From positions 376 through 64,375 of the forward strand of contig JAPLWI010000014.1 in assembly GCA_026396675.1 (NCBI GenBank): 64,000 bases of DNA, written 5' to 3'. A program made the translations under genes and the position numbers. How positions within the stretch are numbered: position 1 is the first letter of the stretch; every line of letters begins with the position of its first letter. The notes beneath the pieces were generated by a model, which was given only the letters and a program-made list of their open reading frames with translations, did no database searches and had not been told where the DNA came from. Shown here in pieces: positions 251-3,510 of this stretch. This DNA is from Candidatus Kaiserbacteria bacterium. Its GTDB lineage: Bacteria > Patescibacteriota > Minisyncoccia > Phycocordibacterales > Phycocordibacteraceae.

Positions 251-267
251 AGAGATTATATTTCCTG

Positions 268-339
268 CGGGTCCAGCTGGACTCGAACCAGCAACTTCGC
301 TTTTGGAGAGCGACATTTTACCATTGAAACTATAGACCC
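268..339 (-). tRNA. trnW: tRNA-Trp (anticodon CCA)
   Basis: Cloverleaf read by eye: acceptor GGGTCTA/TGGACCC, D-loop with GG, anticodon stem TCGCT/AGCGA with loop CTCCAAA, T-loop TTCGAGT. No encoded CCA. Confidence 0.75.
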
Positions 340-348
340 ATCTTTGAA

Positions 349-1062
349 CTAGGTTACCATATTTTCGAGAAAGGCGCGGGCAATAGCCGATATCTTTCTT
401 GAAAGAACCACGTCATGGTATCTGACATGAATGCAGCCATTGTAATTAGGTTTAGTTGACTTACCTGTGTGCGGTTTCCAGAAAGTGTTTTGGAATTGCT
501 GTTCTTGGATTCCAGTAACTTCAGACCAAAAAGTTCTTTGCCTACTTTCATCATGATATTCGTGCAAATGCATTTTAACTCGAAAGCGTTTCTCATCGAG
601 TTGCGGTATTGCTTGGCGCAATAACGCCATAAATCCGCATATGGTGAGCGGTTCGGCATTTGTGAAGGTAAACTCACTATCATTCTTTGATTTTGATCCT
701 TCACACCAATACATCAAAGAACACATAATAAGCGCCATTTCATTATCAATCGTGGTTTTTGACATCGACAATTCTGACTCCTGCTTTACATTTGCAAGTT
801 TTGTGCGGGTTAATTTTCTCTTTGCCTCATTGGCCATTTCGCGAGCCCTCACTTTTCGTGCCTGAATTAATGCACGAGCCCTTTCAGGAAGGACAATGTC
901 TTGTGTCCATAAGGATACAGATGATTTCGATACCTTTAGTTTTTTAGCGATTGCTGGAAGAGTTTTCCCCGATTTCCGCATCAGTATCGCTTGGGAATGT
1001 TCAAATGATTTGGTCTGCATACAACGGTTATAATAACATTGAAACAAGTTCGTATTCTCCAA
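349..1062 (-). CDS. HTH-domain hypothetical protein (possible DNA-binding or mobile-element-related); true start may be the internal Met (MQTKSF, about 1020)
   Basis: N-terminal helix-turn-helix-like segment SGKTLPAIAKKLKVSKSSVSLW. No other recognisable catalytic motif. Divergent from the pilin-SLT gene. Confidence 0.45.
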   Translation of the reverse strand: MENTNLFQCYYNRCMQTKSFEHSQAILMRKSGKTLPAIAKKLKVSKSSVSLWTQDIVLPERARALIQARKVRAREMANEAKRKLTRTKLANVKQESELSMSKTTIDNEMALIMCSLMYWCEGSKSKNDSEFTFTNAEPLTICGFMALLRQAIPQLDEKRFRVKMHLHEYHDESRQRTFWSEVTGIQEQQFQNTFWKPHTGKSTKPNYNGCIHVRYHDVVLSRKISAIARAFLENMVT

Positions 1063-1112
1063 ATAGTGGGGAAAACAGTCCTGAACGCAGTGAAGGGCGG
1101 TATGATGAAATC

Positions 1113-1967
1113 ATGATTCCGTTCTTCGGTCCCATTATTCCTGCCGCTTATAATGTGTGCCCGGCCAGTTGGGGATTGCTTATCACAGTTATAAACAACA
1201 TCATCAGTTTGCTCATTACGCTCGGACTCGTTCTCGTCGCGCCAATTATGATTGCGTATTCCGGCTATCTTTATGTAGTGAGTCCAGTTGATCCAGCGGG
1301 GAAGAGTAAGGCGAGAGGAATTCTTCTCCACACTATCATCGGTATCATTGTGATGTTTGCTGGCTGGCTCATCGTGGATGCAGTGATGGCGGTAATCTAT
1401 AATCCAAGCGCTGTCGGCGGAACTTGGTCATCACTTATTACTTCGGGCGGTATTGACCCCTGTCTCAAACAAGCGGCTTCGCTCATAAATCTTAACCAAA
1501 CAAATTTGAGTGTGTCAGGCATAAGTGCGAATGGCAGTGCAGTATACATAAGCGGGAAGTCAGGCGCCCTATGTGGAAATACGGCTTGCAGTCCAGCATC
1601 TCTCCAAGCAGCTGGTCTTGCCCCAGCGCAGGCCAATGCAATGTCATGCATCGCAATGACCGAGAGCACCGGAAACACAAATACTCCTAGTAGCTCAACT
1701 GGTGCATGCGGGACTTTTCAAATAACGCGTGGAAATTGGAACACAGCGAGTTTTCACCAATCTCCTTGTAGTACAGCCACTCCTTGCAACGATCCAACCT
1801 GCAACTTACAAACCGCACAGATTATGTTCTCCAAATCCGGATATCAGCCGTGGACAGGAATATGTAAAAATGTAAATGGATGCGGAGTTGTTGCCTACGG
1901 GCAACCGTGGAATGCAGGAGCGCGAGCATGTGTAAATCAATATGATCCAGGGAATTTAAAGGATTGA
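1113..1967 (+). CDS. Pilin-like (VirB2/TrbC-type hydrophobic hairpin) protein fused to a C-terminal lytic transglycosylase (SLT-like) domain
   Basis: ORF-track frame 951..1967. ATG at 1113 chosen to avoid overlap with the divergent gene. Two long hydrophobic helices (LLITVINNIISLLITLGLVLVAPIMIAY and HTIIGIIVMFAGWLIVDAVMAVIY). C-terminal SLT motifs: MTES (catalytic E-S), GTFQI (GLMQ-like) and AYGQPWNAGA (AYNAG-like). Confidence 0.5.
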   Translation: MIPFFGPIIPAAYNVCPASWGLLITVINNIISLLITLGLVLVAPIMIAYSGYLYVVSPVDPAGKSKARGILLHTIIGIIVMFAGWLIVDAVMAVIYNPSAVGGTWSSLITSGGIDPCLKQAASLINLNQTNLSVSGISANGSAVYISGKSGALCGNTACSPASLQAAGLAPAQANAMSCIAMTESTGNTNTPSSSTGACGTFQITRGNWNTASFHQSPCSTATPCNDPTCNLQTAQIMFSKSGYQPWTGICKNVNGCGVVAYGQPWNAGARACVNQYDPGNLKD

Positions 1968-1977
1968 TAATATTTTT

Positions 1978-2553
1978 ATGAAAAAACTTCTTATCATCTT
2001 GCTCGCTCTAGCACTTCTGGGATTTATTGCTTTTTGGGTATTTGTTGGTTTTGGTTCTAAGCAAACCATAACCGGTTCTAATGGTGGGAACGTCACTCTT
2101 CCTTTAAGCGGCAATGTACCAACATCTACTTCAGGCAGTTCGATGCAAGATAAAACATCTTTCACAGTAGCTGGCTCTGGAGGAGTCACTATACCAACAC
2201 GCGATTTCCTTCGTGACTCAACCGCAGGAGAATATCCGAACCGTGGCTATTATTACCTTGGTTATCATACATCTGGGGATGGCGTTGTTGACCCAACAGC
2301 AACAAACGATCCTCCATATCTTATCGAATACATAAAAAGTGAACAGTATTTCATTATCGAATTATTGAAGGAACCTATAGGCACAACACGTTTAATCGCA
2401 GAGCAGTATCTTATGGCGCATCTAGGAATCTCACAGGATCAAATGTGCCAGCTTAACTATTCGGTGAGCGTTCCGAATCGTGTCAATTCGCAATATGCCA
2501 GTAAAAATCTCGGATTCAGCTTCTGTCTTGGTGCGACGAAGTTACCAAATTAA
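1978..2553 (+). CDS. Secreted or membrane-anchored hypothetical protein
   Basis: N-terminal signal/TM segment MKKLLIILLALALLGFIAFWVFVGF, then a Ser/Thr/Gly-rich region. Lies 10 nt downstream of the pilin-SLT gene. Confidence 0.45.
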   Translation: MKKLLIILLALALLGFIAFWVFVGFGSKQTITGSNGGNVTLPLSGNVPTSTSGSSMQDKTSFTVAGSGGVTIPTRDFLRDSTAGEYPNRGYYYLGYHTSGDGVVDPTATNDPPYLIEYIKSEQYFIIELLKEPIGTTRLIAEQYLMAHLGISQDQMCQLNYSVSVPNRVNSQYASKNLGFSFCLGATKLPN

Positions 2554-3424
2554 GTTTGCGGAGCCACGCTTTTTGGCGGCGCGCATACTGCCAGAGCTTT
2601 GCCGAAAGCGTGTGTAGTAAAAGTGTCAAACACTCGGTGTTTGACACTTTGTTCTTGTTGAGGAATTCGCCAATGATTTTGTATTCAAGACCGAGTTCGT
2701 TAATTCGTTCGTCGCCATATTTTTCGCGTATGGTGCGGACTTCTTCAATAAGCCCGCGATCAAAGGCACTCGCAAGCCGTGCATCAATTCGTGCTCGTAG
2801 CTCTTCTTTTGGCGGATCAATAACAATCCACTTCGAGCAGTAGCGAGATTCCGAGCCAAACGAGGGACGAACAGGGACTTTTCCTTTTGTATCAATAATT
2901 TCTAACGCGCGGATGAGTCGGCGACGATTTTGTGGGTCGAGTTCAGAGGCGCGGCGCGCGTCCGCAGAACGGACGCGCGTGGACAATTCTTCTGTTGAAA
3001 GTTTTTCAAGTTCAGCACGAAATGCTGGATTCACGTCAATTTCGGGAATGGGACGCAGAAGTGCGTCAAAATAAAAATGCGTTCCACCGACAAGAATCGG
3101 TAGTTTCCCACGTTTCGAAATATCTTCAATTAAACGTGCCGCATCTGTAACGAAATCACCAGCAGAATAGATCTCATTCACATCGTGGATATCAATAAGA
3201 TGATGTGGCACCCCGCACATTTCTTCGGTTGTTATCTTTTCCGTACCAATATCGAGACCACGATACACTTGCCGCGAGTCCACAGAAATTATTTCTCCAA
3301 TGAAGGGTTTCGGAAATCCTTCACCTGATGAAGGATTTCCGAAACCCTTCAAAGCGATCTCAACCGCCAGCGCAGATTTACCCGAGGCAGTCGGCCCCAC
3401 GATGCAAAGAATATGTGTCGCCAT
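2516..3424 (-). CDS. miaA: tRNA dimethylallyltransferase MiaA
   Basis: P-loop CIVGPTASGKS plus SVDSRQVYRGLDIGT motifs. Start reset to MATHIL (3424) because the longer ORF (to 3469) would run into tRNA-Leu. Carries an in-frame palindromic insertion (GFGNPSSGEGFPKP). Confidence 0.85.
   Translation of the reverse strand: MATHILCIVGPTASGKSALAVEIALKGFGNPSSGEGFPKPFIGEIISVDSRQVYRGLDIGTEKITTEEMCGVPHHLIDIHDVNEIYSAGDFVTDAARLIEDISKRGKLPILVGGTHFYFDALLRPIPEIDVNPAFRAELEKLSTEELSTRVRSADARRASELDPQNRRRLIRALEIIDTKGKVPVRPSFGSESRYCSKWIVIDPPKEELRARIDARLASAFDRGLIEEVRTIREKYGDERINELGLEYKIIGEFLNKNKVSNTECLTLLLHTLSAKLWQYARRQKAWLRKLNLVTSSHQDRS
3305..3347. repeat. Palindromic in-frame insertion element, copy A (diverged), inside miaA
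   Basis: GGGTTTCGGAAATCCTTCACCTGATGAAGGATTTCCGAAACCC. About 84% identical to copy B. Encodes GFGNPSSGEGFPKP in the miaA frame. Confidence 0.7.
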
Positions 3425-3428
3425 ACTG

Positions 3429-3510
3429 TGCTGAAGGTGGGAGTCGAACCCACAACCCTTGCGGGACACGATTTTGAGTCGTGCGCGTATACCAATTCCG
3501 CCACTTCAGC
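3429..3510 (-). tRNA. trnL: tRNA-Leu (anticodon CAA), type II with long variable arm
   Basis: Acceptor GCTGAAG/CTTCAGC, anticodon stem CACGA/TCGTG with loop CTCAAAA, long variable arm, T-loop TTCGACT. No encoded CCA. Confidence 0.75.

Follow-up and report, generated by a model that had tools for sequence, protein, structure and literature searches.

The fusion gene and its partner

We analysed a 64,000-nucleotide stretch of Candidatus Kaiserbacteria DNA (contig JAPLWI010000014.1; the whole stretch is called the window hereafter) with a focus on a gene on its + strand, at 1113..1967 (284 amino acids; stop codon at 1965-1967), that encodes a pilin-like helical hairpin fused to a lysozyme-like domain. 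A second gene, referred to as the partner gene (1978..2553, + strand, 191 amino acids), starts 10 nt after the stop codon of the fusion, a gap short enough that the two are probably co-transcribed. A sequence-only reading of this DNA had described the first protein as a type IV secretion system (T4SS) pilin hairpin joined to a lytic transglycosylase domain; the observation has been confirmed, and its interpretation is partly supported by the results below. The same reading had suspected an organism from the candidate phyla radiation (CPR), correctly so, as a database search showed the fusion product to be 100% identical to hypothetical protein NTU85_02490 from a metagenome-assembled genome of Candidatus Kaiserbacteria.

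The open reading frame (ORF) of the fusion spans 951..1967 on the + strand and contains an in-frame ATG at 1113. NTU85_02490 is called from an ATG at 1005, the start used by both NCBI and Logan, which yields a product of 320 amino acids. We rejected that start because it adds 36 charged, non-conserved residues and crosses a conserved block of upstream DNA. Judged from the sequence, the ATG at 1113 is the best start, since it coincides exactly with the mature N-terminus (IPFFGP...) of the homologues.

The N-terminal half is a pilin-like hairpin

The N-terminal pilin-like module (1113..1466, + strand; residues 1-118) comprises an uncharged N-tail with an invariant cysteine (C16), helices at residues 20-56 and 61-96, and a post-helix WSSL...C117 segment, and the short loop that joins the two helices is basic (K64, K66, R68). 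An AlphaFold2 model built on 111 sequences (mean predicted local distance difference test score, pLDDT, 87.8) consists of a helical hairpin and a globular lysozyme-like domain; the single unrelated fold that the sequence-only reading had named as a possible refutation is not what was predicted. The Pfam family PF18895 (T4SS_pilin) matches residues 25-91 of the window protein over model positions 7-71 of 71 (E=8.1e-5), with a score of 23.1 bits against a gathering cut-off of 26.6. At the level of the family (E<=1e-3 or 1e-2), PF18895 matches 75 of 111 full-length homologues (best E=1.9e-11) and 62 of 70 isolated modules (best E=2.1e-12), and the assignment of the family to PF18895 is firm on these profile matches, which bears out the earlier description of a two-helix pilin-type half. 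The classical family TrbC/VirB2 (PF04956) did not match the window protein at E<=1; it matches 5 of the 70 isolated modules (best E=6.2e-7) as well as a paralogue of the fusion at locus L078 (E=8.1e-5). Kinship of the window protein itself to TrbC/VirB2 is distant and is not established.

Conservation is highest in the hairpin, where the mean pairwise identity is 60%; it is 49% in the catalytic domain and 34% in the linker between them. This pattern argues for specific membrane contacts rather than passive anchoring. The invariant C16 precedes helix 1 and the invariant C117 follows helix 2, and these positions, together with the basic loop and the positive-inside rule, predict that both ends of the hairpin lie outside the cytoplasm, as they do in VirB2-type pilins. 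The termini of VirB2-type pilins face outwards in F-type and T-type pili. The variable Ser/Thr/Gly-rich linker (1467..1586, + strand; residues 119-158) is the least conserved region, and pLDDT drops to under 50 over residues 125-129.

Small stand-alone PF18895 pilin genes (~90-125 amino acids) were also observed in two relatives, ~9.5 kb upstream of the fusion (L002:1-555 and L012:394-657). A search of the 64 kb window with a hidden Markov model (HMM) of the pilin module detected no second pilin-like ORF.

The C-terminal half is a lysozyme-like domain

The disulfide-rich C-terminal domain (1587..1964, + strand; residues 159-284) is matched by PF18896 (SLT_3) at residues 165-248, over model positions 5-88 of 89 (E=6.6e-5), with a score of 23.7 bits against a gathering cut-off of 27; as with the hairpin, the match of the window protein is below the cut-off and that of the family is clear, with PF18896 found in 72 of 111 homologues (best E=1.5e-9). 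PF01464 (SLT) matches the window protein at E=2.2e-3 and 18 of the 111 homologues, Destabilase matches the window protein at E=1.6e-3, and the one NCBIfam match to this half is negligible. The domain is modelled with a pLDDT of ~88-98, and every one of its best 22 Foldseek matches in the PDB is to a lytic transglycosylase or a lysozyme (E 0.4-3, probability at most 0.94), with MltE, Slt70, Pseudomonas aeruginosa Slt, phiKZ gp144, hen lysozyme and RpfB at the top. When the family profile was compared with PDB sequences, the best matches were c-type lysozymes, led by that of Musca (3cb7, E=4e-6) and followed by the silkworm and human enzymes; the alignment brings together the CIAxxES and G(I/T)FQI blocks and some of the cysteines. 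The earlier claim of a lysozyme-like or SLT-type C-terminal half is upheld by these matches, and by sequence the domain is as near to animal c-type lysozymes as it is to SLT.

The motifs narrow down the chemistry that would be expected. Glu184 (codon 1662-1664) is invariant, aligns with Glu35 of lysozyme and lies at the end of the first core helix of the lysozyme-like fold, where a catalytic Glu is expected. T-E184-S and G200-T-F-Q203 (1710-1721) are invariant or nearly so among the homologues. The position of Asp52, the second member of the catalytic pair of c-type lysozymes (GH22), is occupied by an invariant Ala198, so that the second catalytic carboxylate is absent and a retaining double-carboxylate mechanism is excluded. 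Family-1 lytic transglycosylases (PF01464, GH23) carry three motifs, of which the E-S and G-T-F-Q motifs are kept here and the third is not. The sequence-only reading had listed E-S, GTFQ and AYG..NAG as motifs of the domain; the first two are indeed conserved, but the last sits in a lineage-specific insert, GICKNVNGCGVVAYGQPW, that is present in only a handful of homologues. The invariant Glu184 and the alanine at the Asp52 position point to a single-carboxylate lysozyme-like glycosidase, which could be a lytic transglycosylase or a goose-type-like muramidase, two activities between which the sequence does not decide. PF18896 may represent a bacterial relative that bridges animal-type lysozymes (GH22) and lytic transglycosylases (GH23).

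Of the ten cysteines in the whole fusion, which are largely invariant, C159, C179, C219, C230 and C273 of the lysozyme-like domain are invariant and C225 is nearly so, suggesting that the domain is extracytoplasmic and stabilised by disulfides. An extracytoplasmic location would also fit with the uncharged N-tail, the K/K/R loop and the signal peptides of other family members.

The partner gene is specific to lysozyme-type fusions

The partner has 85 homologues in a database search, matches no Pfam or NCBIfam family, and has a predicted fold for which structure searches of the PDB and BFVD returned no match. Its model (pLDDT 85) is composed of an N-terminal helix (residues 2-24), a disordered Ser/Thr/Gly stretch (29-58) and a very confidently predicted alpha/beta domain (61-191). 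The helix is too long and too hydrophobic for a cleavable signal and is therefore likely to be a membrane anchor. The earlier description of a secreted Ser/Thr-rich protein thus holds insofar as the gene is conserved and its product exported, but the product appears to be membrane-anchored, with a folded domain behind the disordered linker, and not simply secreted. Invariant residues of the ectodomain are E132, P133, R138, C157 and C183. Two further sites are conserved outside regular secondary structure: the C-terminal NLGFSFCPGATxLP segment (window 2497-2550), which is nearly invariant, and P42, which stands in an (L/F)P-x-S/A-G-like context inside the variable disordered linker (window 2062-2151) and shows more than 90% conservation.

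To describe the linkage of the two genes, HMMs from our own alignments were run on 88 loci. The partner lies immediately downstream of 62 of the 63 non-redundant lysozyme-type fusions that have room downstream, and of 1 of the 38 fusions with other C-termini (Fisher p = 2.6e-25, uncorrected for phylogeny).

The pilin-like hairpin also occurs on other wall hydrolases

Contrary to its earlier description as unusual, the fusion is not rare. The first database search recovered 390 homologues, and among 1.84 billion cluster representatives a profile search detected 26,470 matches at E<=1e-3 (a count that includes pilin-only and lysozyme-only proteins), 3,092 at 1e-10 and 384 at 1e-30, with full-length fusions making up the majority of the best 150. 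Homologues occur in Kaiserbacteria, Adlerbacteria, Paceibacterota and the Parcubacteria group. Some members are already annotated as "pilin", and both halves are already Pfam families. What is new is the combination, within one protein, of a VirB2-like pilin with a VirB1- or lysozyme-like hydrolase; the family is widespread in Parcubacteria and uncharacterised, and is neither unique nor unannotated at the domain level.

In paralogues of the fusion the N-terminal module is retained in full, with its signal peptide, FFGP sequence, two helices and two cysteines, and the C-termini fall into at least 8 clusters. The module is joined to SLT (PF01464) at L032:9914-11251 (E=1.9e-15) and L058:9779-11035 (E=5e-9), to VanY/M15B (PF02557) at L076:11480-12424 (E=1.8e-14) and L048:9911-10903 (E=1.4e-4), and, by a weak match, to CHAP at L001:9051-9992 (E=0.022). 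The hydrolase classes confirmed on the pilin module by profile matches are lysozyme-like, SLT and VanY. Three further C-terminal clusters (0, 1 and 7) have no Pfam match, and to read an HxxGxxxD motif of LAS peptidases into them would be a guess. In more distant genomes the third gene of the operon is another pilin-module fusion (20 cases); in Kaiserbacteria such paralogues are located elsewhere in the genome. One complete Kaiserbacteria chromosome contains two tandem cassettes of a fusion followed by a partner-like gene (L031:9851-13050). The recurrence of the hairpin on other wall hydrolases was overlooked by the sequence-only reading, as was the loss of a signal peptide described next.

The window copy has lost its signal peptide

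All aligned homologues, 32 initially and 110 later, start with a classical signal peptide (MRSRxxLF...LPxxAHA), after which the mature sequence reads (G/A)IPFFGPIIP. The window protein starts M-IPFFGP at ATG 1113, which corresponds to the mature end, and has no signal peptide. When the window DNA was aligned with that of four homologous loci, the ~78 nt that code for the signal peptide were cleanly absent from the window only, and the flanking blocks were kept; the loss can be seen by setting window 1066-1115 beside L004:1380-1760, L002:9840-10230 and L001:9850-10240. A scripted check of 67 lysozyme-type fusions in the 88 loci found no other complete copy without a hydrophobic leader; those that the script flagged as leaderless turned out either to be cut off at the end of a contig or, despite a visible leader, to be artefacts of the regex. 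Three independent assemblies from different sequencing runs (L088-L090) contain an identical gene preceded by the same ORF, indicating that the deletion is real and ruling out an assembly artefact as its source.

The flanking DNA upstream of the deletion is a conserved block (1066..1106, + strand) made up of GTGGGGAAA at 1066-1074 and then GCGGTATGAT, which contains TATGAT at 1101-1106, and both parts are kept in the alignment with the four homologous loci. TATGAT ends 6 nt before ATG 1113 and is a probable -10 element, which would imply a leaderless or near-leaderless mRNA. A generic sigma-70 promoter scan did not flag the site, so it is the conservation of the site that suggests a promoter.

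How the window protein might enter the membrane can be considered by analogy. Proteins of the Pf3-coat type insert into or cross the membrane without a signal peptide. The N-tail of the window protein is 20 residues long and uncharged, and because it is so short and lacks charge it could plausibly cross the membrane without a signal peptide, through YidC-type insertion. In the window lineage, membrane insertion may have switched naturally from dependence on a signal peptide to independence of one.

Comparison with known systems

The function of the T4SS and the VirB2-like pilins of Patescibacteria has been described as completely unknown (PMC11665869; PMC10633639). Their T4SS is homologous to the MPF-FATA class of Gram-positive conjugation systems, and in a survey of 3,035 genomes VirB2-like pilins were found in 1,948 assemblies that contain VirB4, with pilins near virB4 in 1135 of these 1948 and few homologues of VirB1, from which it was concluded that pilus biogenesis may not need VirB1 (PMC12102498). 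In the literature that we searched, including this survey and a T4SS review, we found no description of pilin-hydrolase fusions in CPR bacteria or of PF18896/SLT_3.

The closest point of reference is Southlakia epibionticum, the only Patescibacterium with genome-wide essentiality data, in which the T4SS cluster and its pilins are essential (PMC10633639). Among the products of that cluster, SEML1_0006 combines a cysteine proteinase domain with two lysozyme-like domains and SEML1_0007 is M15B-like, and six PF18895 pilins (SEML1_0014-0019) are encoded separately from these hydrolases (PMC10633639 supplement). Lysozyme-like and M15B domains are therefore encoded apart from the pilins in S. epibionticum and fused to the pilin module in the family described here, a "Rosetta-stone" pattern that points to a functional link between pilin and hydrolase; for the cysteine proteinase, the counterpart on the pilin module is the weak CHAP-like match. 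As a family, the fusions share with the PF18895 pilins of S. epibionticum the Pfam family of the hairpin, the two long helices, the basic loop, the signal peptide and the phylum. Those pilins are ~100-140 amino acids long, carry no enzyme and are encoded within the T4SS cluster, whereas the fusion adds a 165-residue linker and lysozyme-like domain, is found among housekeeping genes and, in this genome, lacks the signal peptide.

Among Gram-positive conjugation proteins, PrgK of pCF10 and TraG of pIP501 resemble the fusion in combining a membrane anchor with a lysozyme- or SLT-type wall hydrolase that opens a monoderm wall, and their peptidase-type domains are paralleled in the paralogues of the fusion. 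PrgK and TraG are encoded in a transfer operon, are anchored by a simple transmembrane segment, and each unite several hydrolase domains in a single protein. The fusion family, by contrast, has one hydrolase domain per protein, a pilin-family hairpin as its anchor and a gene outside any T4SS operon. VirB1 of Agrobacterium and other GH23 enzymes (Slt70, MltE) share with the fusion the lysozyme-like fold (by Foldseek), the catalytic Glu-Ser, the G-x-x-Q motif and the absence of a second carboxylate; the fusion differs from them in having no conserved AYNxG-type third motif, a small disulfide-rich domain, and a profile nearer to c-type lysozymes than to solved SLTs. The animal c-type (GH22) and i-type lysozymes are, like the fusion domain, small disulfide-stabilised extracellular domains, and its best sequence matches of solved structure are of the c-type, besides the Destabilase match given above, but the fusion has an invariant Ala for Asp52 of GH22, is bacterial in origin and is membrane-tethered. 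Finally, the X-T4SS effectors with their immunity lipoproteins and the type VI secretion pair Tse3-Tsi3 resemble the locus in that a gene for a muramidase-type protein is followed, in near-obligate linkage, by a small envelope partner gene. The fusion differs from such pairs in that it has no secretion-system context and no effector-recognition domain that we recognised, and its partner is unlike known immunity or lysozyme-inhibitor folds.

Proposed function and alternative explanations

We propose that the fusion is a membrane-tethered extracytoplasmic peptidoglycan glycosidase that does a VirB1-like wall-opening job, linked to a T4SS and controlled by the partner, a reading to which we give about an even chance of being correct. 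The hairpin would sit in the membrane with its basic loop facing the cytoplasm and its two ends outside, the flexible linker would let the disulfide-stabilised catalytic domain reach the wall, and Glu184 would cleave glycan strands. The partner, as a single-pass protein of the same membrane, would bind the lysozyme-like domain and control it, by inhibiting or positioning it, at the surface of the producing cell itself. Local opening of peptidoglycan by the enzyme would serve a type IV secretion or pilus apparatus, such that a VirB2-like protein would be doing a VirB1-like job, which, as the sequence-only reading noted, normally falls to a separate VirB1. We consider it most likely that the enzyme works with a T4SS or pilus because it is anchored not by a generic helix but by a pilin module of high conservation, and because this module has been reused for other hydrolases. 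The wide spread of VirB2-like pilins in Patescibacteria, set against the scarcity of recognisable VirB1 (PMC12102498), also speaks for this reading. The data show the architecture, its conservation, the linkage to the partner and the series of paralogues; from these we infer the topology, the catalytic activity, the part played by the partner and the connection to a T4SS.

Several observations weigh against this proposal. The neighbourhood of the fusion is made up of housekeeping genes: in six Pfam-annotated loci the order is IF2-RbfA ... ClpB-L33-fusion-partner-(third gene)-miaA-Prx-parB-relA-topA-dprA-serS, and it is kept across homologues of 41-77% identity. No Pfam family of a T4SS ATPase or channel lies within +-10 kb of the fusion in the six homologous loci, and VirB4, VirB6 and VirD4, which the sequence-only reading had suggested looking for, were not seen among the window ORFs of >=150 amino acids, as read by eye and not profile-scanned. 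The conserved gene order and the lack of a T4SS ATPase or channel indicate that the module is a vertically inherited chromosomal locus; within this scope the fusion does not lie next to virB4 or other T4SS genes as many PF18895 pilins do, nor within a T4SS cluster as VirB1 hydrolases do, and because it is part of such a housekeeping neighbourhood its VirB1 role is one that we infer. In addition, the window protein scores below the gathering cut-offs of both PF18895 and PF18896, the structural matches are weak (no Foldseek match in the PDB at E<=0.001), and a profile of the pilin module found no solved conjugative pilin (VirB2 or TraA) among PDB sequences, so that kinship to classical VirB2 must be distant. 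The partner has no recognisable fold, so the role given to it above is a guess, and the window copy has no signal peptide, so that its route of insertion and, conceivably, its function differ from those of the rest of the family.

The alternative that best survives the evidence, though we think it doubtful, is that the fusion is a housekeeping autolysin. The hairpin would then be a pilin-derived, lineage-specific device for export and anchoring, the protein and its paralogues would be ordinary hydrolases of growth and division, and the partner would be a regulator. The position of the gene, strictly conserved among core genes (ClpB, L33, miaA, parB, relA, topA, dprA and serS) with no T4SS gene near, agrees with this explanation, as do the classic autolysin classes spanned by the paralogues (glycosidase and D-Ala-D-Ala peptidase) and the presence in the window of the wall-synthesis genes that such an enzyme would serve (MurA, MreB/C, PBP2, FtsI, MurF, MurG and FtsW, read by eye). 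However, no other part of the protein is as conserved as the hairpin, which is more than a passive anchor would need; the window already encodes MltG-like and M23-type hydrolases that lack the pilin module (also read by eye); and the hairpin family adjoins virB4 in the 1135 assemblies mentioned above (PMC12102498) and is essential within the T4SS cluster of S. epibionticum (PMC10633639).

It is also conceivable, if unlikely, that the fusion belongs to an armed pilus or acts as a contact-dependent effector, either as a minor pilin among small major pilins or as a protein exported by a T4SS, in which case it would digest the wall of a host or prey cell and the partner would be an immunity protein. 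T4SSs that kill bacteria by means of wall-hydrolase effectors, and that come with immunity proteins, exist, and the layout of the two genes, effector then immunity, with a near-absolute linkage specific to lysozyme-type fusions, would suit such a system. The partner ectodomain is predicted to lie on the producer's own surface, small stand-alone PF18895 pilins are encoded in the same genomes (e.g. L002:1-555), and the outward termini established for F- and T-type pili would display the C-terminal domain. A 190-residue appendage would, however, be sterically demanding on a pilin, and we know of no pilin with so large an appendage and of no host for Kaiserbacteria. The other pilin-hydrolase paralogues have no recognisable partner, the locus has no T4SS context, and in the PDB and BFVD the partner resembles neither a known immunity fold nor a lysozyme inhibitor. 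In favour of this reading, lytic transglycosylases have been proposed to compromise host envelopes in Patescibacteria (PMC11665869). Extended to the whole paralogue series, this line of thought would lead to "enzyme-armed pilins" in Parcubacteria, whose outward C-termini carry lysozyme-like, SLT, VanY-type or CHAP-like domains and which, within or capping a T4SS pilus, digest the host wall at the point of contact while the partner confers immunity to the lysozyme-type member; we offer this as speculation that is more probably wrong than right by a good measure. If it were true, it would give the patescibacterial T4SS/pilin system a concrete job in episymbiosis.

That the gene in this genome is a decaying or non-functional copy, its signal peptide deleted, seems improbable. 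The clean ~78 nt deletion, with no other complete homologue lacking the leader, and the rearranged upstream synteny are what decay might leave behind, but the frame is intact, every family-invariant residue is kept, the start codon coincides exactly with the mature N-terminus and follows the conserved upstream block, an identical gene occurs in three independent assemblies, and the short uncharged N-tail makes YidC-type insertion plausible. Very improbable is an origin of the PF18895 match as a compositional artefact of two hydrophobic helices in a hairpin that has no relation to pilins, for although the window score is sub-threshold, 7TM_GPCR_Srsx and Yip1 are also weakly matched and no solved pilin was matched by sequence, PF18895 matches reach E=2.1e-12 and cover the whole 71-position model in most members, independent TrbC/VirB2 matches reach 6.2e-7, and the family shares the layout of signal peptide, hairpin and basic loop with VirB2-type pilins.

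Returning to the proposal of a membrane-tethered, T4SS-linked glycosidase, the covalent joining of the pilin module to wall hydrolases is a direct genomic link between pilin and hydrolase functions, and it means that "pilin" annotations in patescibacterial genomes hide enzymes. The family also offers handles for experiments, namely an ectodomain for peptidoglycan assays, a catalytic Glu, a cognate partner and a natural variant without a signal peptide.

Neighbouring genes

The gene downstream of the partner is miaA (2516..3469, - strand), a convergent neighbour that encodes a tRNA isopentenyltransferase; PF01715 (IPPT) is found at the same place in all homologous loci, and the gene serves as the conserved anchor of the synteny here. 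Between miaA and parB the window carries a tRNA-Leu(CAA) (3428-3510, - strand) where relatives encode a peroxiredoxin (AhpC-TSA, Prx), and this replacement is a second local rearrangement of the conserved synteny, besides the one upstream of the fusion. As read by eye, the rest of the window is CPR housekeeping DNA, including miaA, parB, relA/spoT, topA, dprA, serS, dnaB and cysS.

Upstream, and outside the module, lies a divergent ORF that contains a helix-turn-helix (HTH) domain (349..1062, - strand; HTH_23, E=1.9e-4) and encodes 210-237 amino acids depending on the start; it is called as 210 amino acids (349-981) in other assemblies. Together with a tRNA-Trp (267..339, - strand), it replaces the ancestral ClpB-L33 neighbours. 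A reading of this ORF by eye as LAGLIDADG-like was unsupported, as the ORF and the LAGLIDADG_3 protein of the equivalent locus L007 are not similar. The ORF may be a mobile or selfish gene. At another of the homologous loci, a primase-polymerase-like gene and a serine recombinase gene (L001:4465-8956) are situated just upstream of both a pilin-CHAP-like paralogue and the fusion, perhaps as parts of an integrated element, and suggest that the locus may be a hot spot for insertion.

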